From contig OZ242358.1 in the NCBI GenBank assembly GCA_965208835.1, positions 4,512,001-4,576,000 on the forward strand: a stretch of DNA of 64,000 nucleotides, read 5' to 3'. Numbering within the stretch: position 1 is the first letter of the stretch; every line of letters starts with the position of its first letter. Below are positions 7,873-62,138 of the stretch, piece after piece. This DNA is from Candidatus Latescibacterota bacterium (GTDB taxonomy: Bacteria > Latescibacterota > UBA2968 > GCA-2709665). Position numbers and translations under genes: made by a program. The notes under the pieces were generated by a model. The model did no database searches. It was not told the origin of the DNA and saw only the letters and a program-made list of their open reading frames with translations.

Positions 7873-8055
7873 CAGTCCGTTGATAAAGTCGCTCTGCAGG
7901 CGAGGTATGGTGTCCCGTCCCGGAAATAGATTGCCATTTTGGCCGAAGACAAGGCGCGCGACCGAGTCCCATCCTGCGATTCGGCGAGGGAGCGCAACGC
8001 GGTATTTCGACCGCAAGGGCCGGCCGTAGCCCGGATGGACTTTATCAACGTGCTG
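7873..8055 (+). mobile_element. MITE family A, copy 1 (183 bp, carries a remnant of family B)
   Basis: TIRs CAGTCCGTTGATAAAGTC / GACTTTATCAACGTGCTG; homologous to 41203-41362 and 61815-62138. Confidence 0.85.
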
Positions 8056-8069
8056 TAAAGGAGTCGAGA

Positions 8070-8885
8070 ATGAAATACCGCTTTGCCGAAATGATCTGGT
8101 ATGAAATCAAGGAGGCGGCGGAGCAGGACCGTGTTGCCGTCCTGCCGGTCGCGACGTACGAGGACCACGGACCGCACCTCCCCGTGGATACTGACGTCGT
8201 CCTCTGCACGGAGATCTGTGAAAGGGCGGTGGCGCGGATCCCGTCGGAGGCCGTTCTGGCTCCGCCGGTCCCGCACGGGTACAGCCCCCATCACATGGAT
8301 TTTCACGGGACGCTGACGATAACCTGGGATACCTTCATCCGATACGTCAAGGATGTCTGCTGCAGCCTCGCCCACCACGGCTTCAAGCGGATCCTGGTCG
8401 TGAACGGCCACGGCAGCAATACGCCCCCGCTGGACCTGGCAACCCGCCTGACGGTGATCGAATACGAGGGCAGGGTTCTGTGCGGCTCGGTGAACCACTG
8501 GGGGCTCCGGAAGGTGAAAGAGGTGGGACGCGAACTGAGGGAGTCGGACTACGGCGGGACCTCCCACGGCGGCGAGTTCGAGACGTCGCTATACCTGGCA
8601 TTGAAACCGGACCTGGTCGATATGAGCAAGGCGGTCGACGAACGGTCGCCCCTGTCGAACAGCTTCCAGTCCGACCTGCTCGCGGGCGGCCATCCCGAAG
8701 GGTCCAGCGCGAATTTCACGCCATACTGGAGCACGAAAACCGCCAGCGGCGTGATGGGAGACGCGACGAAGGCCAGCCGGGAGAAGGGGGAGCAATTCCT
8801 CGAGGCGGGCATCGAGGGGCTGATCGAACTGGTTCGGGAACTCAGGGCGACCGAAATCATGGGCCGCCGCGACCAGCACGAATAG
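8070..8885 (+). CDS. Creatininase family amidohydrolase
   Basis: [18 protein letters not shown] and HGGEFETS motifs. Confidence 0.93.
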
Positions 8886-8901
8886 ACGAAGGGTCGAATC
8901 C

Positions 8902-9903
8902 GTGAAGACTCACGTTTTCACCAGCGGACGGGATGGCTATCACACGTACCGGATTCCCGCCGTGCTTGCCGCTGCGAACGGAACGCTGCTGGCCTTGTGC
9001 GAAGGCCGGCGTAACAGCCGTTCGGACCACGGAGATATCGATCTCCTGGCAAAGCGTTCCGAAGACGGTGGGCAGTCCTGGTCGGCGCAGCGGGTCGTCT
9101 ACAGCGAAGCGGGCGAGGTCACGATCGGCAATCCCTGCCCTGTGGTGGACGCGGAGACAGGCACGGTGTGGATGTTGTTCTGCAGAGACAACGTCGATGT
9201 GCTAGTCACACACAGTAGAGACGACGGTCTGACGTGGTCCGATCCCATCGACATCACGAGTGACGTCAAGAAAGAAACGTGGACCTGGTATGCGACGGGC
9301 CCGGGCGTGGGCATCCAGCTCCGGAACGGGGCGCGCAAGGGGCGGCTCCTGATTCCCTGCGACCACAGGAACCCGGAAGCGTACGACTGCGGTTCCCATT
9401 CCGTCTACAGCGATGACGGAGGGGCGTCCTGGCGTTTGGGCGGTTCGGTCCGGCCGGGGGCCAACGAATGTCAGTTCGGTGAACTCGCGGACGGGACCGT
9501 GGCCATGAACACCCGGATGCAGACGCACAGCGAGGGGTATCGCGGAACCGCGTTGAGCCGGGACGGAGGCGAGTCCTGGTCTGAATTCCGGCACGACCGC
9601 AATCTGCCCTGCCCGAAGTGCCAGGCCAGCCTGGTGGGTGGCGGCAACCCGGACAGCCTGCTGTTTTCGAATCCCGCGCCGCCCGTTCCGCCAGAAGCCG
9701 GCGGCGGAGAGCGGGCGAACATGACCGTCCGGCTGAGCAACGACGGAGGCAGGACCTGGCCCGCGTCCGAATTGCTGCACGAGGGACCCGCGGCGTATTC
9801 CTGCCTGGCTTTACTTCCGGACGGCTCGGTCGGCTGCCTGTACGAAGCCGGGTCGAAATCCCCCTACGAGCACATTGTCTTCGAGCGTTTCAGGTTGAAT
9901 TGA
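8902..9903 (+). CDS. Sialidase-family (GH33-like) glycosidase
   Basis: YRIP motif, five Asp-boxes SxDxGx[ST]W, AYS motif; no signal peptide. Confidence 0.9.
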
Positions 9904-9912
9904 GAAAACGCA

Positions 9913-11238
9913 ATGGATGAGACTACGTCTGGAAGCGGTCCTGCGCTCGAGGAACGATATCGGGCGGCGAGCCCGCGTTCCCGGGCGGCATTCAATCGTG
10001 CCAATGCGGTGATGCCCGGCGGCGTGAAAGGGGCGTACTTCTACCAGCCCTATCCGCTGACCATTGAGCGCGGCGATGGCTGTTACGTGTACGACCTGGA
10101 CGGCCGCAAGCTGGTGGATTTCAACAACCACCATACGGCGCAGATCCTGGGCCACAACCATCCGGCGGTCGTTGCCGCCGTACGAGAGCAGGTTTCCAGG
10201 GGGATTGCGTTGAGCGCGCCCGCGGGCGTGGAGGCGGGACTGGCTGAAGCAATGTGCGGCCGGGTAAAGACCGTGGAGAAGATCCGGTTCTGCAATTCCG
10301 GCACGGAAGCCACCCTGCACGCCATTCGACTGGCGCGAGGCGTCACCGGAAGGACGAAGATCGCCAAATTCGAGGGTGGATACCACGGCAGCCACGACGT
10401 GGTGGAGGTGAGCGTGGCGCCGCCGCTGGAGAAGGCGGGGCCCGCGTCGGCGCCGCGTTCGGTTTCCACGGCGGGCGGCGCTTCGCCGAATGCCGCCGGC
10501 GAAGTGGTGGTCCTGCCGTATAATGACGAAGACGCTATTGAGCGATTGCTGGCGCGGTATCGACGCGAACTGGCGTGCGTGATATTCGACCCACGGGCGG
10601 GCATATTGTCCCAACGCGCGGAGTTCGCGCAGTTCGTATGCGACATGGCGCGGAGGCACGACGTACCCGTGATATTCGACGAGATCGTTGGATTCCGGTT
10701 CGGTACCGGGGGTCTTCAGGAGCACTATGGCATCGAGCCGGATCTGACGACGTTCGGAAAGGTCATCGGGGGCGGATTTCCGGTGGGCGCCTTCGGAGGC
10801 CGGGCCGACCTGATGGATCGCTTCGACTCCTCCCGGGGGCCGACAGGCTTCTTTCAGAGCGGGACGTTCAGCGGGCATCCCGTGGCCATGGCCGCGGGTC
10901 TGGCGACCCTGAAGCAGTTGACGCCGGACGTGTTCGCGCACCTCAACCGGCTGGGAAAACGGCTCAGGGACGGGTTGAACCGGCTGTTTTCAGAACGTGA
11001 AGTCGATGCCACGGCCGTAGGCGTGGGATCGTTGTTCAGCATCCACTTTTCGGGCGAAGAAATGCTGAACTACCGACATCTGGCGCGAACCGACAGTGCG
11101 GCGGCGCACCGGATGCTGCTCGGACTGATCGAACGGGGATATTTCCTGGGTAACGGGCTGTTGATGTGCGCCATCTCCGCGCCGATGGACGAAAGTCACG
11201 TGGACGGATTGATCGATGCTGTCGAGGGAGCGATTTAA
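9913..11238 (+). CDS. Class III aminotransferase (glutamate-1-semialdehyde aminomutase-like)
   Basis: NSGTEA, FEGGYHG, FDEIVGFR, TFGKVIGGGFPVG, GTFSGHP. Confidence 0.9.
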   Translation: MDETTSGSGPALEERYRAASPRSRAAFNRANAVMPGGVKGAYFYQPYPLTIERGDGCYVYDLDGRKLVDFNNHHTAQILGHNHPAVVAAVREQVSRGIALSAPAGVEAGLAEAMCGRVKTVEKIRFCNSGTEATLHAIRLARGVTGRTKIAKFEGGYHGSHDVVEVSVAPPLEKAGPASAPRSVSTAGGASPNAAGEVVVLPYNDEDAIERLLARYRRELACVIFDPRAGILSQRAEFAQFVCDMARRHDVPVIFDEIVGFRFGTGGLQEHYGIEPDLTTFGKVIGGGFPVGAFGGRADLMDRFDSSRGPTGFFQSGTFSGHPVAMAAGLATLKQLTPDVFAHLNRLGKRLRDGLNRLFSEREVDATAVGVGSLFSIHFSGEEMLNYRHLARTDSAAAHRMLLGLIERGYFLGNGLLMCAISAPMDESHVDGLIDAVEGAI

Positions 11239-11257
11239 AGTCGCTAATCGTCTCTGA

Positions 11258-11418
11258 CTATTGTGGCTTCGTGTTCTTCAGCAGCGACCCTGCAGAGCAA
11301 AAAAGATCATACTTACCCTTTCAATGAAACAATCACTCCCCCCTTGAGGGGGAGTCGCAGAAGCCGAGCCGTTCCCTGAGCTTGTCGAAGGGCCGGCGAT
11401 GGCTGATGCGGTGGGGGG
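11258..11418 (+). repeat. Composite REP-like element (ACTCCCCC-CTTGA-GGGGGAGT palindrome plus a partial CCCTGAGCTTGTCGAAGGG unit)
   Basis: 8-bp-stem palindrome at 11335-11355; similar to 20970-21196. Confidence 0.7.
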
Positions 11419-11611
11419 ACTTCAATGCCCTACTGTATGTATGCATCTTGGCATTGTACACTCTCATTCTGCGTTGACGCCTTATTGTAAGACTCGCAGC
11501 CAGGTTTATATACCCTTGCCCCACCGGCCTGGAGGCTTTTCTGGTGACTTATATTCACGCGGTCGTCCGCGGCATGCCGCATAAGAGGTGTTGATTCGGG
11601 AGGACAATCAG

Positions 11612-12379
11612 ATGCGATACATCGACACACACGCCCACCTGGGGCCGTGGTTCGACGAAATCACGACATTTTCAGCCGAGGGCTTCGTGGCCATGCAGGA
11701 ACGGGCGGGAATCGAGCGAACCGTGGTGACATCCGGGTCCGCCCTGTTTACAGAATTGATATATGGCAACGAATGGACCATACAGCAGGCCGAGAAACTG
11801 GATCATCTGCTCGTCTGGCTGGTGTTGAATCCGTTGAAAATGAGCGAGTCGCTGGCGTTGCTGGACCGTTTCAAGGATCATCCCAAGGTCGCGGGCTTCA
11901 AGATCCACCCGGTACAGCACAAGTATCCGGCGGACATCAAGCCCACCTTCCGGCTCTTCGAAAAGCTGGAGCCGCTCGGGCTTCCGGTGCTTTCGCATGG
12001 AGAGAACGAATCGTACGCGGCGCCTGCCCGGCTGCGGCGGGTGGCCGAAGCCTTTCCGACCGTGACAGTTATTACGGCGCATTTTGGCGCGGGACAGCCA
12101 GGCCAGACGTACGAGGCAATTGATGCGCTCCAGGATTGCAAAACGGGCAACCTTTACACGGATATGGGTACGGCAAGGGCAATCCGCACAGGCATGATCG
12201 GGCTGGTGGTGCGCGAAGTCGGGGCGGACCGGGTGTTGTTCGGTACGGATTCGCCTCTGTACGAGCCGATGGCGTTCCCCGCGCTGCTGGCGGCGGCGAA
12301 TATTACGGACGACGAACGGGAACAGATCGCCTGGAGGAACGCGGAGCGGCTCGTGCTCGCGCCGAAGGGATTGTCATAG
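11612..12379 (+). CDS. Amidohydrolase_2 family metal-dependent hydrolase
   Basis: IDTHAH, GFKIHP, AHFG and LFGTDSP motifs; GGAGG RBS. Confidence 0.9.
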   Translation: MRYIDTHAHLGPWFDEITTFSAEGFVAMQERAGIERTVVTSGSALFTELIYGNEWTIQQAEKLDHLLVWLVLNPLKMSESLALLDRFKDHPKVAGFKIHPVQHKYPADIKPTFRLFEKLEPLGLPVLSHGENESYAAPARLRRVAEAFPTVTVITAHFGAGQPGQTYEAIDALQDCKTGNLYTDMGTARAIRTGMIGLVVREVGADRVLFGTDSPLYEPMAFPALLAAANITDDEREQIAWRNAERLVLAPKGLS

Positions 12380-12424
12380 AAACTTCCGATGTTGTTGAGT
12401 CAGTGCGTCAGGGGGAATCGATAG

Positions 12425-13777: not shown

Positions 13778-13799
13778 AACCCCTCAAAGGGAGGCGGAA

Positions 13800-14465: not shown

Positions 14466-14503
14466 GCACGACCTGAGCAGGCCCGCAAATGCAGGAGGTT
14501 GCG

Positions 14504-15604: not shown

Positions 15605-15631
15605 ACATCAAACGGTAAGAAGAGGATTGCA

Positions 15632-17449: not shown

Positions 17450-17669
17450 AAAAAGACAAGAGTCAAATTGGCCACAAAAGCGCAGCTAGTTCTGCTGTTG
17501 CGTCAATGCCTATTATTCGCGTCATCTCGCGTTATTCGTAGTTTGATGCCCTTCGGCTTCTTTCGTGGTTTTTCGTATTCTCGTATTCTCGCGCCGTTCA
17601 GCTTTTTTTCGCGGCATTTCGCGTTGTTCGTAGTTCATTTTTTCGGTTTTTGGACAGGCGTGCGGGCAG

Positions 17670-18608
17670 ATGGATGACGATTTCGAGATCAGGTACCGGG
17701 ATCGAAGAACGGAACGGACAATAACGGAGCCGCTGTCCTACGGGATTTTTCAACGGGTATTCCGGTCTTCGTTCGTGCTTGGACTCTTCCACCTCCTGCT
17801 GAACAATTCGGTCTTTTGCCGGTTCTATGGCTGGGTGCAGGCGCGGCCCGGAAGCCGCCGGAAGATTTCCCGTTTCGTGCGGGATTACGGCATCGACGTG
17901 GAAGAGATCGAGTTTCCCCCGGAGCGGTATCCGAACTTCAACTCGTTCTTCACCCGCCGCCTGAAACCCGGCGCCAGGCCGTTTGCCCCGGAATCCGACG
18001 CGTTATCCTGTCCCGCGGACGGCAAGGTGATGGTCTTTCAGCATCTCCTGGAGGGCGCCAGGATCCCGGTCAAGGGAGGGGCGGTTCCATTGGATCTCCT
18101 GCTGGATTCCGACGAGGAGGCGCGCCCCTATCTGCACGGTTCGGCGCTGGTGGTTCGACTCGCGCCGTACGACTATCACCGTTTTCACTTTCCGGATTCG
18201 GGAGTCGCCGGCCCGGCGCGCGTTGTTCGAGGCAGGTACTATATCGTCAACCCGCTGGGCCTCGCCAGGGTGCCCGGCGTATTCCGGCGGAACAGACGCG
18301 CGGTGACCAGGTTCGATTCGGACGGGTTCGGACGGATCGCTTATCTGGAAATAGGCGGCTTTGCGGTTGGGAGCATCGTTGAAACGTACACGCCGGGCCC
18401 GGTCGAACGGGGTCAGGAGAAGGGTTTTTTTCAGTTCGGCGGGTCCACGCTCGTGCTGCTGTTCGAGCCGGGAACGGTCGTTTTCGACAATGACCTGAAG
18501 GAAGAATCCGGACGCGGTATCGAAGTGCACGTGAGGGCGGGAAACCGAATCGGCAGACGAATTCAGGATCGGGGAGACAGAACGCGTCAGCCCGGAGCCG
18601 CTCCCTGA
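17670..18608 (+). CDS. psd: Phosphatidylserine decarboxylase proenzyme (GGST type)
   Basis: FNSFFTRRLK, PADGK, RLAPYDYHRFHFP, FQFGGST autocleavage motif. Confidence 0.92.
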   Translation: MDDDFEIRYRDRRTERTITEPLSYGIFQRVFRSSFVLGLFHLLLNNSVFCRFYGWVQARPGSRRKISRFVRDYGIDVEEIEFPPERYPNFNSFFTRRLKPGARPFAPESDALSCPADGKVMVFQHLLEGARIPVKGGAVPLDLLLDSDEEARPYLHGSALVVRLAPYDYHRFHFPDSGVAGPARVVRGRYYIVNPLGLARVPGVFRRNRRAVTRFDSDGFGRIAYLEIGGFAVGSIVETYTPGPVERGQEKGFFQFGGSTLVLLFEPGTVVFDNDLKEESGRGIEVHVRAGNRIGRRIQDRGDRTRQPGAAP

Positions 18609-18697
18609 GCTTGTCGAAGGGTCGGCGAAGGGATGTCGATTGGCCCCTCAGGGATAGTGAAACGCGGGCATTTCGACAAGTTCAATGACCACGTTTC
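18595..18697 (+). repeat. REPIN-like doublet
   Basis: TGAGCTTGTCGAA ... TTCGACAAGTTCA inverted pair; homologs at 21101-21196 and 59081-59166. Confidence 0.8.
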
Positions 18698-20873: not shown

Positions 20874-21100
20874 TTTTTCCTCTCCTGATCAATGTTGAGA
20901 ATCAGTTTAATCCAGACGCAATTCAGCTGGTCTGAGTCATTCAATTATTAGTACCTATAGAATCCTATTCGCTATCGCGGCTTCGCATTGTTCTGCCAAA
21001 ACCAGTGAGATGAAAAGGAACGCAGGAGCCCGATTGACGGTCCCAATCAGTTCCACTTGAGGGGGAGTCGCAGTATTCGACCCCTTCCCCTGAGCATGCG

Positions 21101-21196
21101 ACCTGAGCCGCTCCCTGAGCCTGTCGAAGGGTCGGCGAAGGGCTGCCCAAGGGTGCCGAAACGCGCGCACTTCGACAAGCTCAGTGACCACGTTTC
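21101..21196 (+). repeat. REPIN-like doublet preceded by a TTGAGGGGGAGTCGCAG unit
   Basis: TGAGCCTGTCGAA ... TTCGACAAGCTCA inverted pair. Confidence 0.8.
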
Positions 21197-21392
21197 GGCA
21201 GGCTTAACGCCCGTTTCCGTAAACTGAACCGCTGCAGTGTTAGCCGAGGCGAGTCTGAAACCTGCCCATACGGTCCGGATATCAACATGCACCTGCACTT
21301 TCTGTGCCTTTTGTGCTTTTTGTGGCCAATGACGTGGTTAACCACTTGAACAACCAAGATACCGCGTTTGTGGAATTTCCGCCGCGTCCCAT

Positions 21393-26108: not shown

Positions 26109-26114
26109 ACCGCT

Positions 26115-26141
26115 GCCCGGATGGGCTTTTTCAACGGGCTG
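26115..26141 (+). mobile_element. Solo right end of MITE family A
   Basis: GCCCGGATGGGCTTTTTCAACGGGCTG, identical to 62112-62138. Confidence 0.75.
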
Positions 26142-37396: not shown

Positions 37397-37414
37397 TTAA
37401 TTCTCCTTTGCTTA

Positions 37415-37624
37415 GAAGCTGTCTTAAAATTCCCAGCGGTCTTCGCGCGGCTGCAAGAGCGCCGGTCGGCGTTGGTCAAACCCACCCGTCTTACGAGATC
37501 GAGGCTGCGCTTGCTCGCCTGTCATAGGCGGATTTGCCCGTCGGCGTTGCGCGCCCCTCGCGCCTCTTAACCGCCACTTTTTCGCTCGCGCTCTGGAACT
37601 CACCGGTAATTTTAAGACAGCTTC
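37415..37624. mobile_element. MITE family C (210 bp)
   Basis: Perfect 17-bp TIR GAAGCTGTCTTAAAATT/AATTTTAAGACAGCTTC with TTA on both sides. Confidence 0.85.
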
Positions 37625-37627
37625 TTA

Positions 37628-40600
37628 TCAATTGCCCAATGAAGCGCTTCCGACTTCGCTGTTGATCAGCCTGCAATGAAGAATGAGGTGGCTCCATGAG
37701 TCGATATTCTTTCCACTGGCAGGAGTAAACGTCCATGCCTTATTCCCCGACTGCCGTGACACTTCACCAAATCCCCTGGCGCCGGCAGGTAAAGAACCAC
37801 CTTTGGGCCAGTTAATGTTGTTGCTGGTGTAAAGAGCAACAAACACATCCGGCGCCCCGCTCGGCGTTGACAGTCCGGTAATGCTGAGTCTGAGCTTCCC
37901 GTCGGAAGTCTCGCGTAGCGTCACGGATCCACCCGATGAATAGTTGTTTCGTCCACTAATCGTACCGGTACGGCTTCGCAGTGGTTCCGTTACGGTCAGC
38001 GTCGCCGTGCCGGATTTGCCGTCCACGGTCGCCGTGATCGTTGTGGAACCGGCGTCCACGCCCGTTGCCAACCCGGATGAGTTGATGGTGGCCACCGAGG
38101 CGCTGCCGCTCGTCCATGTGAACGTCTTGCCGGATATCATCGTGTTGTCCGAGTCAAAGGCGGTGGCGCTGAACTGCTGGGTCCCGCCCTCTTCGATTGA
38201 TACGGACGATGGACTTACCGTTACACGGTCCACAACCGGCGGCGGCTCGGTCACGGTCAGCGTCGCCGTGCCGGATTTTCCGTCCACCGTCGCCCTGATC
38301 GTCGTGGAACCGGCATCCACGCCCGTTGCCAACCCGGACGCGTTGATGGTGGCTACCGAGGTGCGGCTGCTCGACCAGGCGAACGTCTTGCCGGATATCA
38401 TCGTGTTGTCCGAGTCAAAGGCGGTGGCGCTGAACCGCTGGGTACCGCCCTCTTCGATTGATACGGACGATGGACTCACCGCGACACGGTCCACAACCGG
38501 CGGCGATTCGGTCACGGTCAGCGTCGCCGTGCCGGATACGCCATCCACCGTCGCCCTGATCGTTGTGGAACCGGCGTCCACCCCCGTTGCCAACCCGGAT
38601 GAGTTGATGGTGGCCACCGAGGCGCTGCTGCTCGTCCAGACAAAGGTCTTGCCGGATATCATCGTGTTGTCCGAGTCAAAGGCGGTGGCGCTGAACCGCT
38701 GGGTACCGCCCTCTTCGATTGATACGGACGATGGACTCACCGCGACACGGTCCACAACCGGCGGCGGCTCGGTCACGGTCAGCGTCGCCGTGCCGGATAC
38801 GCCGTCCACCGTCGCCCTGATCGTCGTGGAACCGGCGTCCACCCCCGTTGCCAACCCGGACGCGTTGATGGTGGCTACCGAGGTGCGGCTGCTCGACCAG
38901 GCGAACGTCTTGCCGGATATCATCGTGTTGTCCGAGTCAAAGGCGGTGGCGCTGAACTGCTGGGTCCCGCCCTCTTCGATTGATACGGACGATGGACTCA
39001 ACGTGACACGGGCCACAACCGGCGGCGGCTCGGTCACGGTCAGCGTCGCCGTGCCGGATACGCCGTCCACGGTCGCCCTGATCGTCGTGGAACCGGCGTC
39101 CACCCCCGTTGCCAACCCGGATGAGTTGATGGTGGCCACCGAGGCGCTGCTGCTCGTCCACGTGAACGTCTTGCCGGATATCATCGTGTTGTCCGAGTCA
39201 TAGGCGGTGGCGCTGAACCGCTGGGTCCCGCCCTCTTCGATTGATACGGACGATGGACTCACCGCGACACGGGCCACAACCGGTGGCGACTCGGTCACGG
39301 TCAGCGTCGCCGTGCCGGATTTTCCGTCCACCGTCGCCCTGATCGTCGTGGAACCGGCGTCCACCCCCGTTGCCAACCCGGATGAGTTGATGGTGGCCAC
39401 CGAGGCGCTGCTGCTCGTCCACGTGAACGTCTTGCCGGATATCTTCGTGTTGTCCGAGTCATAGGCGGTGGCGCTGAACCGCTGGGTCCCGCCCTCTTCG
39501 ATTGATACGGACGATGGACTTACCGTTACACGGTCCACAACCGGTGGCGACTCGGTCACGGTCAGCGTCGCCGTGCCGGATACGCCGTCCACCGTCGCCC
39601 TGATCGTCGTGGAACCGGCGTCCACCCCCGTTGCCAACCCGGATGAGTTGATGGTGGCCACCGAGGCGCTGCTGCTCGTCCACGTGAACGTCTTGCCGGA
39701 TATCTTCGTGTTGTCCGAGTCATAGGCGGTGGCGCTGAACCGCTGGGTACCGCCCTCTTCGATTGATACGGACGATGGACTCACCGCGACACGGGCCACA
39801 ACCGGCGGCGGCTCGGTCACGGTCAGCGTCGCCGTGCCGGATACGCCGCCCACGGTCGCCGTGATCGTCGTGGAACCGGCGTCCACCCCCGTTGCCAACC
39901 CGGATGAGTTGATGGTGGCTACCGAGGTGCGGCTGCTCGACCAGACAAAGGTCTTGCCAGATATCATCGTGTTGTCCGAGTCAAAGGCGGTGGCGCTGAA
40001 CTGCTGGGTCCCGCCCTCTTTGATTGATACGGACGATGGACTTACCGTTACACGGTCCACGACCGGTGGCGACTCGGTCACGGTCAGCGTCGCCGTGCCG
40101 GATACGCCGTCCACCGTCGCCCTGATCGTCGTGGAACCGGCGTCCACCCCCGTTGCCAACCCGGACGCGTTGATGGTGGCTACCGAGGTGCGGCTGCTCG
40201 ACCAGGCGAACGTCTTGCCGGATATCATCGTGTTGTCCGAGTCAAAGGCGGTGGCGCTGAACTGCTGGGTCCCGCCCTCTTCGATTGATACGGACGATGG
40301 ACTCAACGTGACACGGGCCACAACCGGCGGCGGCTCGGTCACGGTCAACGTCGCCGTGCCGGATACGCCGTCCACCGTCGCCCTGATCGTTGTGGAACCG
40401 GCGTCCTCGCCCGTTGCCAACCCGGACGAGTTGATGGTGGCCACCGAGGCGCTGCTGCTCGTCCACGTGAACGTCTTGCCGGATATCATCGTGTTGTCCG
40501 AGTCAAAGGCGGTGGCGCTGAACTGCTGGGTCCCGCCCTCTTCGATTGATACGGACGATGGACTCAACGTGACACGGGCCACAACCGGCGGCGGCTCGGT

Positions 40601-41185
40601 CACGGTCAGCGTCGCCGTGCCGGATACGCCGTCCACGGTCGCCGTGATCGTCGTGGAACCGGCGTCCACCCCCGTTGCCAACCCGGACGAGTCGATGGTC
40701 GCCACCGAGGTGCTGCTGCTCGTCCAGGTGAAGGTCTTGCCGGATATCATCGTGTCGTCCGAGCCATAGGCGGTGGCGCTGAACTGGTGGGTCCCGCCCT
40801 CTTCGATTGATACGGACGATGGACTTACCGTAACACTGGCCACGACCGGCGACGGCGGCTCGCAGGTCGTGCCGAACACTTCGGCAAAGAGCACAAAATC
40901 ACGAAAGCCGATCGCGTCATTGCCGTCTATATCCATCAGCGCGTTGAAATTGGCATCGCCCGAAGAGGTGTTAAACACTGCGACAAAGGAAAGAAAATCC
41001 GCGAATTCAACGATACCATTGTTGTCAAAATCAGCCTGACAAGCACGACTCCCATCTCCGTTTTCGGAGATCAGATCAAGAGACACGACGGCCATCGCGT
41101 TGCGACCGGAAAAGTCCGATGGTGCGAAGACGAGCAACAAAACGGCGAGAAATAGCAACTTCCTGATTGTCCTGTACGTGAACAT
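37628..41185 (-). CDS. Secreted protein: dockerin/EF-hand-like module, 11 Big_2 Ig-like repeats, C-terminal DM13-like domain
   Basis: Signal peptide from ATG 41185 (the longer ORF start lies inside a MITE); DFDNNGIVEFADF and DIDGNDAIGFRDF; 87-aa repeats; APDVFVAL...LILHC...VGSASL. Confidence 0.85.
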   Translation of the reverse strand: MFTYRTIRKLLFLAVLLLVFAPSDFSGRNAMAVVSLDLISENGDGSRACQADFDNNGIVEFADFLSFVAVFNTSSGDANFNALMDIDGNDAIGFRDFVLFAEVFGTTCEPPSPVVASVTVSPSSVSIEEGGTHQFSATAYGSDDTMISGKTFTWTSSSTSVATIDSSGLATGVDAGSTTITATVDGVSGTATLTVTEPPPVVARVTLSPSSVSIEEGGTQQFSATAFDSDNTMISGKTFTWTSSSASVATINSSGLATGEDAGSTTIRATVDGVSGTATLTVTEPPPVVARVTLSPSSVSIEEGGTQQFSATAFDSDNTMISGKTFAWSSSRTSVATINASGLATGVDAGSTTIRATVDGVSGTATLTVTESPPVVDRVTVSPSSVSIKEGGTQQFSATAFDSDNTMISGKTFVWSSSRTSVATINSSGLATGVDAGSTTITATVGGVSGTATLTVTEPPPVVARVAVSPSSVSIEEGGTQRFSATAYDSDNTKISGKTFTWTSSSASVATINSSGLATGVDAGSTTIRATVDGVSGTATLTVTESPPVVDRVTVSPSSVSIEEGGTQRFSATAYDSDNTKISGKTFTWTSSSASVATINSSGLATGVDAGSTTIRATVDGKSGTATLTVTESPPVVARVAVSPSSVSIEEGGTQRFSATAYDSDNTMISGKTFTWTSSSASVATINSSGLATGVDAGSTTIRATVDGVSGTATLTVTEPPPVVARVTLSPSSVSIEEGGTQQFSATAFDSDNTMISGKTFAWSSSRTSVATINASGLATGVDAGSTTIRATVDGVSGTATLTVTEPPPVVDRVAVSPSSVSIEEGGTQRFSATAFDSDNTMISGKTFVWTSSSASVATINSSGLATGVDAGSTTIRATVDGVSGTATLTVTESPPVVDRVAVSPSSVSIEEGGTQRFSATAFDSDNTMISGKTFAWSSSRTSVATINASGLATGVDAGSTTIRATVDGKSGTATLTVTEPPPVVDRVTVSPSSVSIEEGGTQQFSATAFDSDNTMISGKTFTWTSGSASVATINSSGLATGVDAGSTTITATVDGKSGTATLTVTEPLRSRTGTISGRNNYSSGGSVTLRETSDGKLRLSITGLSTPSGAPDVFVALYTSNNINWPKGGSLPAGARGFGEVSRQSGNKAWTFTPASGKNIDSWSHLILHCRLINSEVGSASLGN
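37980..40850 (-). repeat. Coding tandem repeat, 11 x 261 bp
   Basis: Near-identical 261-nt units visible in the DNA. Confidence 0.97.
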
Positions 41186-41202
41186 GGCAGGCACGTCCTT
41201 AT

Positions 41203-41362
41203 CAGTCCGTTGATAAAGTCGCTCTGCAGGCGAAGCCGAGCCATTGTGGCCGAAGACAAGGCGCGCAACCGAGTCCCATCCAGCGATTCGGCGAGGGAGC
41301 GCAACGCAGGTTTTCGACCGCAAGGGCCGACCGTAGCCCGGATCGGTTTTTTCAACGGGCTG
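41203..41362 (+). mobile_element. MITE family A, copy 2 (160 bp, empty form)
   Basis: TIRs CAGTCCGTTGATAAA / TTTTTCAACGGGCTG; TTAT direct repeat on both sides. Confidence 0.88.
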
Positions 41363-41519
41363 TTATGTAAGGGTTCAGGTCACCGCTGTCCAGAAACCAT
41401 GGGATTCTCAGAGATGACGTTCGAAAAGTGGCTTCAAATGGCAATTTTGTACGGGTCTGACCCGGATAACGAAAACCAGGTTGCGATTGGTTCCCGATTG
41501 CGGATCACTGTCAACACCG

Positions 41520-41670
41520 TCAATTTCGCGTATTTCGTACTCTCGTATTCTCGCTTTACGAAACTACGAATTGACGAATCTACGAATTGACGAATCTACG
41601 AAAAAGCGGGAATACGTCATTCGTCTTCTGGTTTTCTCGTTCACTCGTATTCTCGTATTCTCGCGCTTTT
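41520..41670. repeat. 8/16-nt periodic low-complexity repeats
   Basis: (CTACGAATTGACGAAT) x ~2.4, flanked by TCTCGTAT units. Confidence 0.75.
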
Positions 41671-41717
41671 GAGGCCAGTCTTACCGTTGCCTTTTTTCGG
41701 ACTGAGGCTTACGCCAT

Positions 41718-52573: not shown

Positions 52574-52599
52574 TGATTGGATCCTGGCCGGCGCATCGC

Positions 52600-54771: not shown

Positions 54772-54779
54772 GGCGGAAC

Positions 54780-55829: not shown

Positions 55830-55859
55830 CCGGCGTGCCGGTCACGACGGACGGAACCG

Positions 55860-56022
55860 GTGTTCTGTCCCGGAAATAAGTTGCCTGAATTCGGCCGCCG
55901 AGTCGCCCGACTCGCAAGGCGCCAGAGCGCAGGCGACCTGCGCAAGGTCGGCGAGCGAGGGGAACGAAGCGAGACGGGATGAATCGACGGCCGAATGGTG
56001 AGGTATTTATGGGACAGGACAC
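55860..56022. mobile_element. MITE family B, stand-alone copy (163 bp)
   Basis: TIRs GTGTTCTGTCCCGGAAATA / TATTTATGGGACAGGACAC; reverse-complement homolog at 61852-62013. Confidence 0.85.
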
Positions 56023-56026
56023 TGAG

Positions 56027-56992
56027 ATGACGACATTCCAGATCGACGGCCGTGACAAGCGGCGACCCATCCGGCTGAGGATTGAGGTCGACAACCAGTT
56101 CGAAGGCGGTGGCCGGTGGCTTCGGGGCGGCCTGCACTCCCACGTGGCGCAAATGGGCGAGTCCCGCGAAGTCTGCGAACACTACATGAACCTGGGATTC
56201 GACTTCCTTGCGACAACGGACTACCTCAGCATCACGCCGATGCCGGAAGCGACGGAAGCCTTCGTAACCGTTCCCGGCGCCGAGATGTTCTGCCCCGGCG
56301 GCGACGACCTGACCCATATTATCTGCCTGGGCATGCGGCATCTTCCTCAGCCGCTGGACGGCACGGTGGAGGACGTCTCCCGCCTGGTCCGGGACACCGA
56401 GGCGCAGGGCGGACTGGCCGTGCTGGCGCACCCCGCCTGGAGCGACTACTCCTGGGAGAAAGCGTATGCCCTGGCAAAGTCCGGGCTGGTCGGCCTGGAG
56501 GTAAGCAACCGGCTGACCTGGCAGATCAACGGCAAGGAGCGATCGGAGGAACTCTGGCAGATGCTGTTCAACGCGGGCGTCCGGCTGGCCGCGATCGGCG
56601 TGGACGATGCGATCGTGCTGGACGACGCGGACGTGACCGGGCGGACGTGGACTGGCGTACTCGTCCGGCGACCGGGCGTGGAGGGCATTCTGGAAGGTAT
56701 ACGCGCGCAGCGGACGTACGCCAGCGAGGGACCGGAGATTCGCGACTTTCGCATCGAAGCTCGGGGCGCGGTTGTCGTGGAATGCAGCCCGTGTACGGCG
56801 TGTCACATCCGGTCGAAGGGGTTCGGGGTCCGCAGTCTGCAGTCGGCGTCGCCTTCGAATCGGTTCGAGGTCGACCTGACCGTTGAAGGCTACCGCATGC
56901 GGGACTGGGTATTCGCGTGCGTGGAGGACGAATTCGGGCGACGTGCCTGGACCAGCGCCATACCCGTCCGCGTTGAGAAGACATCACTCTAG
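56027..56992 (+). CDS. PHP-domain (CehA/McbA-like) metallohydrolase
   Basis: GLHSH, FLATTD, PGAE, LAHP, GLEVSN, YASEGP; alternative ATG 56009 lies inside the MITE. Confidence 0.82.
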   Translation: MTTFQIDGRDKRRPIRLRIEVDNQFEGGGRWLRGGLHSHVAQMGESREVCEHYMNLGFDFLATTDYLSITPMPEATEAFVTVPGAEMFCPGGDDLTHIICLGMRHLPQPLDGTVEDVSRLVRDTEAQGGLAVLAHPAWSDYSWEKAYALAKSGLVGLEVSNRLTWQINGKERSEELWQMLFNAGVRLAAIGVDDAIVLDDADVTGRTWTGVLVRRPGVEGILEGIRAQRTYASEGPEIRDFRIEARGAVVVECSPCTACHIRSKGFGVRSLQSASPSNRFEVDLTVEGYRMRDWVFACVEDEFGRRAWTSAIPVRVEKTSL

Positions 56993-57007
56993 CCCTGGGA
57001 GGACAGG

Positions 57008-59023
57008 ATGAAGAGGACCATTCGACGGACGGCGATGCTGCACTTTGAAGAGGCGAGCTTCTCCCGGGACTACGTGAAGTGGGTCGGCGAGGAGGGATTT
57101 ACCGACATTGGATTGGGGCTGAAGCCTGAAGACGATAAGATGACAGGGCAGGGATACGTCTGGGAAAAGGTCTGCCGGCTGGCGGAATGGGCCGGCGAAT
57201 TCGGGCTGGGCGTGATCGTGTTTACCGGATACATGAAATATCGCGAGACGTTTCTTCGGACCCATCCTGAACGCAGCCTCGTCTGCGTCGGGGGCAGCGG
57301 CGCCGCGTTGGACAGCGACAATATCGTGAGGACACGGTGGCTCTGTCCGTTCCAGCCCGAGAACAAGGCCGAATACGTGGACATGATTCACAAGGTGATC
57401 CGGCTGCCGGCGGTTCGGGAAATCCATCTCAATGACGAGGCCGAAATCGGGTTCTCGAATGGAGATGTGGGCTGCTATTGCGACCACTGCGTCGCGGAAT
57501 ACGAACGCGACACCGGCGAACCCCCTCCCAGGGAGGTCGACTGGGCTTCACCGTCCTGGTGGCGGTGGGTGCAGCACCGGATGGAGGCCTGGTCCGCCGT
57601 TCACGCCTTTTTTCGCGAGGGAATCAAGAAGGTGCGGCCGGACGTCGTCGTGGGCATCCAGCATTCGCCGAAGGTGGTGACTTTCAACGAAAACCCCTGG
57701 CTGTCCGGCATCGACCTGTCCCGCGACGCGGAGGCCATGGACGTCCTGTGCACCGACCCGTACCACCACATTCACTATTCCCATTTTACCTATCGCCCCA
57801 TGCGCCGCATCCAGGCGGAGGCGACGCGCGCGCTGGGCGGAGCGACGATCGGGCGTTCACTGTTCATCTATCCCCAGGGTTTCATGCCGCCCTCGGGGAG
57901 CCTGGAGTTGACACGCCGGGACGGATTCATGGCCGGTGCCGTGCCGTTTGCGCTGGGGGCGGAGAATATCTCCCCATACACGTTCGATCTTTGCCAGATC
58001 ATCCCGGGCTACTACGACGGACTGCAGGACGCCTCGCGGCTGATTCCCTATTTTGAAAAAACCCGGCCCTACAGCGCCGCCACGTTGATCAAGCCCTCCC
58101 AGACGGAAATCTACGGGTATCCCGACAAGCGATGGGGGCGGGAGTACCTGGCAATATGGCCAGACGTGATGAACCAGGTTGGGCTGCCCTGGCGATGGGT
58201 CTTCGACCGGCGGCTTCCGGATGCCGGCGAGGCGTTGAGCGGCCCGGTCATCCTTCCGGAGACCCACTGCCTGACGCGTGAACAGCGCTCCGTACTGGAA
58301 GCGCACGCGCGCGGCGGCAACGGGCTGCTCCGGGTGGGGCGGACGCCGTCCGGCGACTGGTCCGGGGAAGGCGCGCATCCGCCCCCCTCCGGCGACGAGA
58401 CAGGGCTCTCGGAGTTAAAGCCGCTCGATTCCGGCCACTCGCTGCTCAAGGGGATCGATACGCCCATCATGCTGGGGTCGGCGTTCCTGGAACCCGGTCT
58501 CGAAGGGGAGACGATCGCCGAAGTGGACGGGCGACCCGCTCTCGTAGCGGCCGAGACCAACGGACGGCGTGAGGTCTGGCTGGCGGGAACGCCCCTGTTC
58601 AACTACGTGGAACCCGGAGACCACGGAGCCGTACGGGCGCCCACGGGCGGGATGTCACTCTTGCGGAACGCGCTGGCGTGGCTGTCGGCCGAAGCGCCCG
58701 CGGCGAGGTTGTGGCCGTATCCACCAAAAAACGACTACGGAGAACTGCGCCCCTGGGACCGCCGGGACGTGCCGACGATGGAACTGTTTCCGAGTCTGGG
58801 AGATGGGTGCCTCGTCGGTCTGATCTTCAACTACCTGGGGCTGGCCTACGAGACGAATCTGGAGATGCGGGTTCCGGATGGGTCGGCGCCAAAAACGCTG
58901 GTGGATATATATTCCGGCGAGGATCTGATGGGATCCGCCGACTTCGACGGGCAAATTGTCCGGTTGCCGGTGGATATGCCCGGCGACCAGGACTTCCTGG
59001 CTGTTGAACTGCAATGGGAGTAA
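57008..59023 (+). CDS. Hypothetical GH42-like protein (TIM barrel plus trimerisation-like domain)
   Basis: LCP, LNDEAE, GCYCDHC, KKVRPD, TDPY, VILP. Confidence 0.68.
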   Translation: MKRTIRRTAMLHFEEASFSRDYVKWVGEEGFTDIGLGLKPEDDKMTGQGYVWEKVCRLAEWAGEFGLGVIVFTGYMKYRETFLRTHPERSLVCVGGSGAALDSDNIVRTRWLCPFQPENKAEYVDMIHKVIRLPAVREIHLNDEAEIGFSNGDVGCYCDHCVAEYERDTGEPPPREVDWASPSWWRWVQHRMEAWSAVHAFFREGIKKVRPDVVVGIQHSPKVVTFNENPWLSGIDLSRDAEAMDVLCTDPYHHIHYSHFTYRPMRRIQAEATRALGGATIGRSLFIYPQGFMPPSGSLELTRRDGFMAGAVPFALGAENISPYTFDLCQIIPGYYDGLQDASRLIPYFEKTRPYSAATLIKPSQTEIYGYPDKRWGREYLAIWPDVMNQVGLPWRWVFDRRLPDAGEALSGPVILPETHCLTREQRSVLEAHARGGNGLLRVGRTPSGDWSGEGAHPPPSGDETGLSELKPLDSGHSLLKGIDTPIMLGSAFLEPGLEGETIAEVDGRPALVAAETNGRREVWLAGTPLFNYVEPGDHGAVRAPTGGMSLLRNALAWLSAEAPAARLWPYPPKNDYGELRPWDRRDVPTMELFPSLGDGCLVGLIFNYLGLAYETNLEMRVPDGSAPKTLVDIYSGEDLMGSADFDGQIVRLPVDMPGDQDFLAVELQWE

Positions 59024-59080
59024 CAGTTCAGGAAGACCGGCCTATAGGTGCGAACTCGCGCAGGCATCCTTATCGGCTAT

Positions 59081-59166
59081 CGAAGCGTGGTCATTGAGCT
59101 TGTCGAAATGCCCGCAATGCGCTACCCTTCGCCGACCCTTCGACAGGCTCAGGGAGCGGCTCAGGT
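59081..59166 (-). repeat. REPIN-like doublet (reverse orientation)
   Basis: TGAGCTTGTCGAA ... TTCGACAGGCTCAGGGAGCGGCTCAGGT. Confidence 0.8.
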
Positions 59167-59885
59167 CAGGGCCTTGGATGCTACGGGCTTGAGATTCCAA
59201 CCCACAAGAAATCGCATCTGGCGCCCACGTAGTTGCGATCGAATTCCGGACTGACTCCGCAAGACATATCGGTCGCACTCAGGTAGACAGTCCGGTTACG
59301 TATAAGATACCATACCGGATTACTCCCAGAGCAGGGCGCGCTGTTCCGTCCCGCACCGATTTAAGTTATCCATCGGGGTTGGCAGGCCAGCGTAGCGGGT
59401 CCGTCCCGTGAGGGAATTCGCGCCATGCATTAGGCAGGCCCCGCGCCCAGCGGCGACTTTTCTAAAGGCGGTAAGAAGGTAGAGGGAAGCCGGTAGAAGA
59501 AATCCGTGCCCGCTACTATATGCCTTCTTGCCTCCGGCACGAGAAGAAACCTTACATGGCAGGCAATCTCTCCCCTCTCCCGTCTTACGTCTACCCGGTT
59601 TTTCAAGGAACACGCCGTAGGCAGGGAATTGGGGGAAAGGTGAATTTTGAATTTGGGTCTCGCTTTCTAATTCCGGCCTCTGGCTGATCACCGATAGCTG
59701 ATAGCGCTGTTTGATGTCGGGGATCGAAGGAATCTTGCTCTCGTTGCTATCTAAGGAGTCGCCCGCCTTGCGGTTTCTTCGGATTCTCTTTGTGCCCTTG
59801 ATTTTTCATCCTGTCCATCCTGTTCATCCATGTTGGTTTCGCCTCACGACTTAAGGCATTCCACAATAAACGGAGGAACCGAACG

Positions 59886-60731
59886 ATGTCCGAACGAGCC
59901 GACGCGCACATCCATCTGTTCGACGGAGGCTACCAGGATTCCTTTATGAAACGGCTGGGCCGGCCCGTCGATGAAGCCGTCGTCTACGCCTCCCTGGCGA
60001 AAGACCACGGGGTGAAGGCCGCGCTGATCGTCGGGTACGCGGACGTTCCATGGGCGGCGGAGAACACCCGCTATCTCACGCGGATGGCGGCCGAGTACGA
60101 CTGGGTGTATCCCGCGGCCTATTTTGATGCAGCGGAGCCCCCTACGATCGAAGCGCTGACGCAACTTCAGGCGGACGGATTCGTGGGGGTGAGCTTTTAT
60201 ATTTTCGGGCCCGAACGCGTGGACGCGCTCCTCGCCATATCGGACGAGGTCTGGCAGTGGCTGGTTTCCAGGCGCTGGCTCGTGAGCGTGAATTCCAAGG
60301 GCGACGACTGGAACGCCTGGCAGAATGTCCTTACACGACATCCGGAGTTGCGTCTCGTCCTGTCCCATCTTGGCCTGCCTCCAAAGCAGGCGGAAGCGCC
60401 CGACGCGGACGGTGCGAGAGAGGCGATGGCCAGCGTCCTGGCGCTGGCGGAATTTCCCCAGTCGCGGGTCAAGCTTAGCGGCTTCTACGCGCTGACCGAT
60501 CCGGGCCACGACTATCCGCATCACGCGGCCTGGCCCTACGTTGAAGCGCTGCTGGATGCCTACGGCGCTGGTCGTCTGCTATGGGCATCGGACTATTCGC
60601 CCTGCCTGGACTGTCTGACGTTTCCACAGACGTACGACCTGTTTTCGAAAATGCCGTTCCTCACCGATGAGGACCGGACGCGCATCGAAGGATCCAATCT
60701 TCTCGCGCTGCTGGACGAGGTCGAATATTGA
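59886..60731 (+). CDS. Amidohydrolase_2 family (sugar-lactonase-like)
   Basis: DAHIHLF, LSHLGLP, VKLSG, RLLWASDY. Confidence 0.9.
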   Translation: MSERADAHIHLFDGGYQDSFMKRLGRPVDEAVVYASLAKDHGVKAALIVGYADVPWAAENTRYLTRMAAEYDWVYPAAYFDAAEPPTIEALTQLQADGFVGVSFYIFGPERVDALLAISDEVWQWLVSRRWLVSVNSKGDDWNAWQNVLTRHPELRLVLSHLGLPPKQAEAPDADGAREAMASVLALAEFPQSRVKLSGFYALTDPGHDYPHHAAWPYVEALLDAYGAGRLLWASDYSPCLDCLTFPQTYDLFSKMPFLTDEDRTRIEGSNLLALLDEVEY

Positions 60732-60806
60732 GCCGGGCTCCGTTTCGCAACAATAAGCTCACCGGAATCGCAATTGTATTCCGAGGTCTGCCCCGGAGGT
60801 TCTGAA

Positions 60807-61799
60807 ATGCAAAAACTGGGCGTTGGGATCGTTGGCATCGGACACGCGGGACGGGAACATTTCAAGGCGTTTGACGAGAATCCGGATGCAGAGGTGCGGG
60901 CGGCCTGGGCGCCAAGTGTACGCAGACTGGACCTCTTCCCCGGCTCCATGGACCTGTTTGCCCCCACCTACGAGTCGATGCTGGAGCGTGACGACATTCA
61001 TATTATTTCCCTGTGCAGCCCCAACTACGCCCACGCCGATCAGTCGGTTGCGGCGCTTGAAGCAGGCAAGCACGTGATCTGCGAAAAACCCCTGGCGACC
61101 ACCCTGGAGGACTGCGAGCGGATCGTACGGATGGCCGACACGAAACCCTCGCTGAAGTTCATGGTGGGGCAGAGCGCGCGGTTCAATCCCATCTGCAAGA
61201 CCATCAAACGTATGTACGACGATGGAGAACTGGGTGAAGCCTTCTACGCCGAGGCGGACTATCTGCACAACATCGGGAAACGGATCAAGGACTGGTGGGT
61301 CGACGACCGGAATCCGCACTTCGGACTGATGGGCGGCGGCGTCCACCCCATCGATCTCCTGCGATGGATCGTGGGAGACATCGACGAAGTATTCACGATT
61401 TCCAACCACAAGGTGCTCGCCGAATTTCCGCACGACGATGCGTACCTGATGAATTTCCGATTCGAAAACGGATGCATGGGCAAGATGGCCGCGTTCCTGG
61501 GTTGCCAGCGGCCCTATGAGTTGAATCTGGCGATTTACGGCACAAGGGGCACCGCGATCAACGACAGGTTGTATCTCAGCAAAATCGAAGAGTTGGAGGA
61601 TTTTATCCGGCTCCCGATTACGATTCTTGCCGAGCACCCCACGTTCGGGGAAGAGATGGCGCACTTCGTGGGTTGCATTCTGAACGACGGGACGCCGATG
61701 ATCGACGTGCGGGACGGCGCGAAATCCGCGGCCACCTGCATCGCGGGTGCGGTGTCCATCGAGACCGGCAAACCCGTTCGCGTGAAGAATTCATTCTGA
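60807..61799 (+). CDS. Gfo/Idh/MocA oxidoreductase
   Basis: GIVGIG, GKHVICEKPLA, GVHPIDL. Confidence 0.93.
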   Translation: MQKLGVGIVGIGHAGREHFKAFDENPDAEVRAAWAPSVRRLDLFPGSMDLFAPTYESMLERDDIHIISLCSPNYAHADQSVAALEAGKHVICEKPLATTLEDCERIVRMADTKPSLKFMVGQSARFNPICKTIKRMYDDGELGEAFYAEADYLHNIGKRIKDWWVDDRNPHFGLMGGGVHPIDLLRWIVGDIDEVFTISNHKVLAEFPHDDAYLMNFRFENGCMGKMAAFLGCQRPYELNLAIYGTRGTAINDRLYLSKIEELEDFIRLPITILAEHPTFGEEMAHFVGCILNDGTPMIDVRDGAKSAATCIAGAVSIETGKPVRVKNSF

Positions 61800-61814
61800 A
61801 ATCCGTTCGTCAAA

Positions 61815-62138
61815 CAGTCCGTTGAAAAAGTCGCTCTGCAGGCGAGGTATGGCGTCCCGTCCCGGAGATATGTCACCATTCATCCGCCGATTCATCCCGT
61901 CTGGCGGCGTTGCCCTCGCTCGGGGACCTTGCGCAGGTCGCCTCGCTCAGGCGCCTTGCCAGCCGGGCGACTCGGCGGTCGAATTTCGGCAATCTATCTC
62001 CGGAACAGAACACTTGCCATTGTGGTCGAAGACAAGGCGCGCAACCGAGTCCCATCCTGCGATTCGGCGAGGGCGCGCAACGCCGTATTTCGACCGCAAG
62101 GGCCGGCCGCAGCCCGGATGGGCTTTTTCAACGGGCTG
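61815..62138 (+). mobile_element. MITE family A, copy 3 (324 bp) containing a complete family B element at 61852-62013
   Basis: Outer TIRs CAGTCCGTTGAAAAAG / CTTTTTCAACGGGCTG; inner TIRs GCGTCCCGTCCCGGAGATA / TATCTCCGGAACAGAACAC. Confidence 0.9.

Follow-up and report, generated by a model that had tools for sequence, protein, structure and literature searches.

Nested miniature inverted-repeat elements and their changing forms in a genus of uncultured Latescibacterota

Our analysis of a 64,000-nucleotide stretch of the genome of a Candidatus Latescibacterota bacterium (the window, i.e., genome positions 4512001-4576000, part of one 5.18-Mb contig) uncovered copies of two families of transposable elements of the miniature inverted-repeat kind (MITEs), here termed A and B, the second of which is also found lodged inside the first. 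A first-pass annotation had listed five such copies, and all five were located where it placed them, the solo end of A at about 26109-26141. The comparisons reported below cover 14 congeners (G001-G014), and hence 15 genomes or species including the present one. The features in question are the following, with positions counted from the first letter of the window:

7873..8055, plus strand: A derivative of 183 bp with one 26-nt B terminus kept; flanks TTAA and TAAA
7910..7935, plus strand: what remains of a B terminus (26 nt), with an outer half similar to the proximal B end and an inner half, ATAGATTGCC, similar to the distal one
26109..26141, plus strand: solo right end of A, about 33 nt; a blastn match (genome 4538109-4538141) to A positions 128-160 at 87.9%
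41203..41362, plus strand: family A MITE in its canonical 160-bp form; 4-bp TTAT duplication at 41199-41202 and 41363-41366
55860..56022, plus strand: free family B MITE of 163 bp, between a GGA resembling a ribosome-binding site and the start codon of the downstream gene
61815..62138, plus strand: composite A+B of 324 bp (A 160 + B 162 + a 2-bp duplication); flanks CAAA and CTAA
61852..62013, minus strand: nested family B MITE of 162 bp, inverted with respect to the free B at 55860 and bordered within A by TG and TT

The free and nested copies of B thus lie in opposite orientations and are 83-86% complementary, and the remnant in the 183-bp form occupies the same position of A as the nested B. 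The A copy at 41203 is an older insertion common to several relatives: it has an orthologue with identical TTAT flanks in G004 and a 5′-truncated one in G011, and alignment shows it to be present in G009 too. No transposase gene lies in the window, as had been noted from the letters alone; nine transposase Pfam families were searched, and none matches inside it. A scan of the window against Rfam at the gathering threshold returned no family either. The free B (55860-56030) splits the ribosome-binding-like GGA(A/G) from the ATG of the downstream gene, the two being 7 nt apart in relatives, and an ATG that lies in frame within B at 55979 opens an open reading frame (ORF) at 55979-56992; the insertion may have changed the translation start of this gene.

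The two families and their candidate partner elements

Family A is a short, non-coding element of 160 bp with the ends CAGTCCGTTGAWAAAG and CAGCCCGTTGAAAAAG, which form terminal inverted repeats (TIRs); it folds end to end into a single hairpin (-71.2 kcal/mol, z = -3.66). The genome-wide copy search used a 15-nt terminus motif with up to three mismatches on both strands and returned 200 forward and 202 reverse matches; ends no more than 330 bp apart were taken as a pair, which yields 114 two-ended copies of A. These comprise 48 copies of 160 bp, 17 of 146, 13 of 99, 10 of 324, 3 of 183, 3 of 154 and 1 of 253 bp, with the remaining sizes occurring once or twice. The target duplication is exactly 4 bp: among 112 oriented copies, the 4-bp flanks are identical in 42 and agree in at least three of the four bases in 84, as against a mean of 7.6 identical pairs, with a maximum of 19, when the pairings are shuffled. 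The consensus of the duplication is YTAR, i.e., (C/T)TA(A/G), with CTAA (12 times) and TTAG (nine times) among its instances. A is a genus-wide MITE: it is present in all 14 congeners and absent from seven genomes of other genera in the same family and from 19 genomes of a second family (26 in total). The exact 33-nt end of A is also found in records of metagenome-assembled genomes labelled Candidatus Latescibacterota, Gemmatimonadota or uncultured bacterium.

The ends of A had been likened to those of IS5 and IS1182, and a search of the genus for DUF772, the only route by which a partner for A was located, lends substance to that comparison. It led to a 1552-bp insertion sequence (IS) in G001 with the ends CAGTCCGTTGAAAAA and CAGCCTGTTGAAAAA, the first 15 nt of which it has in common with A. 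There are four full copies in G001, 99-100% identical to each other, with 4-bp, YTAR-like duplications (CTAT/CTAT, CTAC/CTAC and TTAG/TTAA), and the IS encodes a 448-aa ORF that matches DUF772 at 66.5 bits. IS5 and IS1182 are not distinguishable here, because the DDE domain of this ORF scores below the Pfam cut-offs (DDE_Tnp_1 at 19.9 bits with a cut-off of 23, and DDE_Tnp_1_6 at 20.1 bits with a cut-off of 25.1). Across the genus, full copies of the 1552-bp IS occur in G001 only, with a partial one in G007, a fragment in G008 and none in the other 12 genomes, and the internal sequence of A is unrelated to it. Judging from these ends and duplications, A is a MITE that is probably moved in trans by an IS5/IS1182-like DDE transposase. 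The present genome was also searched for an autonomous version of A: it has 13 pairs of A termini 0.33-6 kb apart, none of them with matching 4-bp flanks. PF01609 genes of the relatives were considered as partners and rejected, as none of 12 representative loci has A ends around the gene (one has an A copy nearby). Scans for an intrinsic terminator or promoter at the right end of A gave no sites at both A loci tested.

Family B is a non-coding element of 163 bp with the ends GTGTTCTGTCCC and GTGTCCTGTCCC; the whole element is an imperfect palindrome that folds into a single hairpin (-88.8 kcal/mol, z = -8.0). The genome holds 79 pairs of B termini (20 of 163 bp, 15 of 155, 13 of 162 and 4 of 184, besides short forms of 56-70 bp), 11 of which lie inside A copies. 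The flanks of the free copies read cTA-B-TAg, with C at 58%, T at 60% and A at 67% on the left and T at 57%, A at 66% and G at 63% on the right, and many copies have degenerate flanks. Elements of the IS630 superfamily target CTAG and duplicate the TA. Identical flanks are found in 14 of 68 free copies as compared with 13.4 expected, a test that carries no information as the flanks are near-constant TA on both sides. The search for an autonomous element with matching ends recovered, for this family, a candidate in the present genome itself: an intact IS of 1181 bp at 4436227-4437407, about 75 kb upstream of the window, with the ends GTGTTTTGTCCC and GTGTCCTGTCCC, whose match to the ends of B extends over 12-18 nt only. 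It encodes a 365-aa ORF with hits to DDE_3 (79.8 bits) and to four helix-turn-helix (HTH) families, and it recurs at full length and with the same boundaries in G008, G014, G012 and G010, while many pieces of it lie at contig ends in G005. PF13358 (DDE_3), the only one of the nine transposase families with hits in the genome, has two genes there, both outside the window. On the strength of its flanks, which amount to a TA duplication in a CTAG-like target, and of its ends, B can be assigned to the IS630/Tc1-type MITEs. A second IS630-like gene, at genome 4422044-4423129 and likewise outside the window, codes for a protein of 361 aa (DDE_3 at 74.4 bits); it was rejected as a MITE partner, as neither convincing terminal inverted repeats nor ends resembling those of A or B were found for it.

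Nesting, movement as units and the deletion series

That one MITE is nested in the other, as the first-pass annotation proposed, is borne out genome-wide: in the present genome all 11 nested copies of B sit at the identical position of A in the identical orientation, so that the arrangement seen in the window recurs elsewhere. The ten full-length nested Bs form one clade (support 99/80) with a single free copy as its sister, and B therefore probably entered A once. The nested B at 61852 falls within this clade, where its own sister is the B at genome 2894764 (100/93), and the composite of the window is one of ten full composites in the genome. Both ends of B are present in the composite, and the arithmetic is exact (160 + 162 + 2 = 324). 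The junctions read GAGG-(T/C)ATG[B]TT-GCC in composites and GAGG-CCGA-GCC in canonical A, and the TTGCC that was reported to follow the insertion site is indeed seen there. These junctions amend the view that the 160-bp form is the empty state, in that it is not the exact pre-insertion allele, because its CCGA differs from the (T/C)ATG...TT of the composite. Excision of B was rejected as the source of the 160-bp junction, given that CCGA is not derivable from TATG...TT by a footprint of the Tc1 type. We propose instead that a single B would have inserted at the TA of a variant A (GAGG-TATA-GCC, also of 160 bp), near A position 36, to give the 324-bp composite, and that the two TA copies at its borders would later have mutated to TG and TT.

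Both the 324-bp composite and the 183-bp derivative have moved as units. The composite at 2894639 is absent from all five relatives in which its site was compared (G011, G006, G009, G005 and G002), the flanks in G011 being 95-97% identical, which upholds the earlier suggestion that A+B kept moving together; conversely, of 13 composite loci taken from G009 and G002, 12 were located in the present genome, where 10 are empty and 2 hold a 99-bp A. Such transposition would have proceeded through the ends of A. The site of the 183-bp form is empty in G006, G009, G005 and G002, reading ATGCTTCAAGGAG in G006, G009 and G002 and nearly alike in G005; hence, the copy in the window arrived already deleted. 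The same 183-bp subtype is found at other loci in G006 and G007. The site of the free B at 55860 is likewise empty in G006, G009, G011, G002, G004, G010 and G013. Orthologous loci in sister genomes are thus not always filled: empty sites exist for the 183-bp form, for the free B and for composites.

The first reading of the window had family A caught in three states, namely empty, full and deleted. All three forms exist, but they are amplified subfamilies among at least ten forms, with A-derived sizes of 160, 146, 99, 154, 324, 253, 183, 147, 129, 114 and 72 bp. B-derived sequence is found in 20 of the 114 A copies, namely the 10 full composites and 10 derivatives of 253 bp (one), 183 bp (three), 160 bp (one, designated 160'), 147, 129 and 114 bp (one each) and 72 bp (two). 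The junctions of the derivatives (253, 183, 160', 147, 129, 114, 72, 146 and 99 bp) all fall at short repeats. In B-carrying derivatives these repeats are common to B and A, such as CCCGGA in the 72-bp forms and GTCCC(G/A)TCC in the 129-bp form; the 146-bp form has lost 14 bp between GGCCGA repeats, and the 99-bp form 61 bp between imperfect GGCGAGG(C/G)CG repeats. Among the relatives, G011 has a derivative reduced to a TIR-to-TIR stub, and in G003 and G008 there are forms of about 117 bp where the left arm of A is adjoined by 37-39 nt of the distal B end in inverted orientation. The composite would thus have lost sequence by deletion between short direct repeats, and the derivatives would then have transposed themselves.

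The origin of the 183-bp form deserves separate treatment. Its remnant had been said to match the opposite end of B, and its inner half is indeed the distal B end: two of the three 183-bp copies (that of the window and the paralogue at 1006462) and the 147-bp copy carry ATAGATTGCC, i.e., the distal B end in inverted orientation, and between the remnant in 1006462 and the distal terminus of B in several composites there is a difference of 1 nt. The third 183-bp copy, at 422932, carries ATATGTCGCC, the un-inverted proximal end of B, which a deletion between CCATT direct repeats would explain. The earlier proposal that B was first inverted and then deleted through TTGCC is supported in one respect and has to be qualified in another. 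The G003 and G008 fragments carry B the opposite way, so an inverted state of B inside A did occur; however, copy 422932 has the un-inverted end, and inversion is therefore not the sole route to the 183-bp form, while insertion of B in the opposite orientation is equally compatible with the remnant. The 183-bp form may accordingly have arisen via TTGCC or via CCATT, in an order of events that we can only reconstruct. A version without any in-place inversion is a serious if slightly less favored contender: B would have entered the same palindromic TA target independently and the other way round, or its proximal end would have been rewritten from its distal end within the hairpin, with the TTGCC deletion following. 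In keeping with this, the inverted-B fragment of G008 has the junction GGTATC as opposed to the GGTATG of composites, which hints at a separate insertion, and copy 422932 indicates that direct deletion at CCATT also happens. On the other hand, the 183-bp copies have the GGTATG junction of composites, which fits descent from the same insertion, and a full-length inverted composite was not found in the 15 genomes at up to two mismatches, where only truncated forms occur.

Different forms at orthologous loci

Five composite loci of the present genome were compared with the corresponding sites of relatives; each is named below by its genome position:

4573815 (the composite of the window): G006 and G011 have a canonical 160-bp A, flanked by CTAA, at this site; the site is empty in G009, G008, G012, G003, G001 and G010
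3640627: composite in G009 and 160-bp A in G006; empty in G011
3416301: G011 has a 160-bp A whose arms are identical and whose imperfect flanks, TTAA/TCAG, are the same; the site is empty in G009
1220765: G009 and G006 carry the composite, and the site is empty in G011
2894639: an empty site in each of the five relatives

At three of these five loci the orthologous A differs only in having CCGA versus (T/C)A(T/C)G + B + TT. Three species have a rare GACGAGG variant in common at 3640627, where the 160-bp A of G006 is among its carriers. Two loci also hold a 324-bp composite in G009 versus a 99-bp A in the present genome, and both of these assemblies are single contigs. The right A arm of the window composite is one mismatch in 121 away from its orthologue and nine in 121 from the composite at 2894639, and its B differs at 4 of 162 positions from that of the same composite, its sister. 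Orthology was not taken from arm similarity alone, which is not decisive, as two paralogues are as close as the orthologue. Polymorphic sites of A common to composites and 160-bp forms occur in all combinations, and across the 45 pairs of the 10 composites the distances of the A backbone and of B show no correlation (Mantel r = -0.098, p = 0.71).

The canonical junction cannot arise through B being inserted or excised in place, and we therefore infer ectopic gene conversion, by which B together with its junction would be copied into, or erased from, resident A copies in tracts of up to about 200 bp. Most likely, then, the spread was not by transposition alone: orthologous copies of A gain or lose B, with ectopic gene conversion between dispersed A copies as the likeliest agent of both. 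The odds appear even that B spreads among, and is purged from, the approximately 100 dispersed A copies mainly by homology-driven conversion via the A arms (33 nt and 121 nt) rather than by its own transposase; in such a conversion-driven setting, B would act like a homing insert within MITE family A, with the form of a locus (324, 160 or 99 bp) being repeatedly rewritten between close species.

Transposition only, wherein the different A forms at one locus are independent insertions, or excisions followed by re-insertion, at the same preferred YTAR target, strikes us as an unlikely alternative. The target preference of A is certainly strong, its sites often adjoining ribosome-binding-like AGG/GGAG, and the relationships of the species vary by locus, such that lineage sorting is complicated. 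Nevertheless, one would not expect from independent insertions that the present genome and G011 have identical arms and the same imperfect TTAA/TCAG flanks at 3416301, that the rare GACGAGG variant recurs in three species at 3640627, or that an arm at the window locus lies a single mismatch in 121 from its orthologue. More improbable still is that the presence or absence of B at orthologous loci is an assembly error, i.e., that metagenome assemblers threaded the wrong repeat variant through the site. The assemblies of G006 (about 100 contigs) and G011 (about 40) are fragmented, and public short-read contigs break inside repeats: those from public sequencing runs (X18, X22, X1 and X2) that cover 61300-62700 do not bridge the window composite, the joints that they offer come from paralogues, and they carry no locus-specific evidence. 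However, the left A arm is only 33-36 nt long, so that ordinary reads connect the junction with unique flanking sequence; about 10 composites are assembled at other places in each of G006 and G011; and the two contrasts of 324 bp in G009 with 99 bp in the present genome lie between single-contig assemblies (G009, like G002, is a complete genome). Finally, that A and B do not derive from transposons but are repeats with a structural or regulatory role, similar to REP/BIME and spread in some other way, is scarcely credible, for although both form long intergenic hairpins close to gene starts, and A has no transposase in the present genome, their target duplications are of fixed length and sequence, there are autonomous ISs whose ends match theirs and which make the same duplications, and neither Rfam matches nor terminator or promoter sites on A were found in the scans described above.

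Taken together, the account that we hold to be quite probable combines two MITE families, one nesting event, transposition of the composite as a unit, deletions at microhomologies and gene conversion. The TIRs, the target duplications, the partner ISs, the single clade of nested Bs, the empty sites and the orthologous copies with and without B are observed, whereas we infer how conversion works, in which order the 183-bp form came about and which transposase acts on which element. Several points weigh against this account. As regards the nesting, the nested B is bordered by the dinucleotides TG and TT rather than by TA and TA, and the postulated pre-insertion variant GAGG-TATA-GCC occurs in none of the 114 A copies; because it was not found, the 160-bp form is to be regarded as a relative of the empty allele and not as the allele itself. 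As regards the conversion, the fragmented assemblies G006 and G011 take part in all three contrasts of a 160-bp A with a composite, the comparisons do not tell a gain of B at a locus from a loss, and the Mantel test draws on 10 copies only. As regards the transposases, only the terminal 12-18 nt of A and B match the candidate ISs, such that the putative pairing is drawn from ends and target duplications alone. Moreover, the 1552-bp IS has no blastn match longer than 40 nt and no tblastn match in the present genome, and PF01609, PF05598, PF13359, PF13586, PF13546, PF13701 and PF13612 (IS4/IS5/IS701/IS1380/IS982-type) have no matches anywhere in it. The source of the transposase for A is thus unexplained, since there are lineage-specific A insertions here and yet no IS5-type transposase or remnant of this IS.

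The intergenic site of the window composite appears to be a repeated landing place, as the orthologous site holds other inserts in further relatives: about 1.8 kb in G013 (C2, about 2742887-2744719), 260 bp in G014 (C1, 411706-411965), 312 bp in G005 and 119 bp in G002. Those of G014, G005 and G002 have the TCCTGTCCATCCATGT motif in common.

Other repeats of the window and comparison with known systems

The window has several further repeats. A third interspersed repeat of 45-100 nt, with CCCTGAGC(T/C)TGTCGAAGGG, occurs at 11363-11406, 18592-18697, 21100-21197 and 59081-59167, in direct as well as inverted orientation and with arms of up to 94-95% identity. A possible fourth MITE at 37408-37631 consists of two 27-nt inverted arms (TTGCTTAGAAGCTGTCTTAAAATTCCC and its complement) that are 89% complementary and 170 nt apart; much the same ends (TAAGAAGCTGTTTTAAAATTACC) are found at unrelated intergenic sites of G002, G005 and G006. 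A tandem array (37978-40895) of 11 copies of a 261-bp unit, 83-94% identical, lies within a minus-strand ORF of 1231 aa (37628-41323), the product of which would contain repeats of 87 residues; shortly upstream of the likely start of this ORF is the A copy at 41203. Units resembling TCGTATTCTCG form short runs at 17562-17601 and 41524-41673, and in other species the orthologous intergenic sites are filled with similar arrays of short units, among them an insert of 362 bp in G011 and, in G005, ACGAAACTACGAAT units.

The two families amount to a natural time series in one little-studied, uncultured genus, which comprises an orphaned MITE with its IS surviving in just one species, another MITE family whose IS is resident, a single nesting, amplification of the resulting composite, a ladder of microhomology deletions and loci where an orthologous copy differs only in B. 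Should gene conversion indeed be the agent, it would constitute a transposase-independent route by which bacterial MITEs spread or are lost, and trees of MITE subfamilies may not mirror the history of transposition. On a practical level, these repeats break short-read assemblies, and they lie directly upstream of start codons, such that they may affect annotation and expression.

In the open-access literature that we searched, phrases for nested MITEs occur in papers on eukaryotes only (PMC3227409 and PMC5172404 among them) and in none on bacteria, and nothing links Latescibacter* to miniature inverted-repeat elements; in two reviews of the MITEs of prokaryotes, the terms 'nested' and 'gene conversion' are both absent. 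MITEs derived from IS5, IS1182 and IS630 are tabulated for archaea (PMC3852290). Like the IS5/IS1182 MITEs, A is a short foldback element with a 15-16-nt TIR in common with an IS coding for DUF772 and DDE domains and with a 4-bp YTAR duplication, and the MITE greatly exceeds its IS in both abundance and distribution; unlike those known, A belongs to an uncultured lineage, has full copies of its IS in only one of 15 genomes and has an interior unrelated to it. For the second family the reference point is ISY100, a studied bacterial member of the IS630/Tc1-mariner group (PMC2170065). B resembles the MITEs of this group in its cTA-B-TAg flanks, its ends matching an IS with DDE_3 and HTH domains and its imperfectly palindromic structure; it differs from them in matching the IS over the outer 12-18 nt only and in that one of its lineages resides inside another MITE.

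Bacterial MITEs of the Nezha/Chunjie type had their mobility demonstrated by empty and filled sites in related species (PMC3184786). The evidence for A and B is of the same kind, with TIRs similar to those of an IS that occurs in a different species, direct repeats, folding into stable hairpins, and orthologous sites that are empty or filled, whereas here two families interact, with a nesting, amplification of the composite, a deletion series and switches in the form of a locus between species. The nested MITEs of plants and fungi offer the closest structural parallel, one MITE lying inside another with the inner element complete; A+B differs from these in being bacterial, in that the composite is an amplifying subfamily and in that B is apparently exchanged among the host copies. 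The ERIC and BIME elements of enterobacteria are intergenic palindromic mosaic repeats with size variants that stem from internal insertions and deletions at fixed positions. A and B are similarly intergenic and palindromic, with size variants at fixed positions, but unlike ERIC and BIME they have target duplications and partner ISs, and the inserted module is itself a complete MITE. Thus, A and B are ordinary MITEs of known IS superfamilies and not a new kind of element; what sets them apart is the unusually clear detail.

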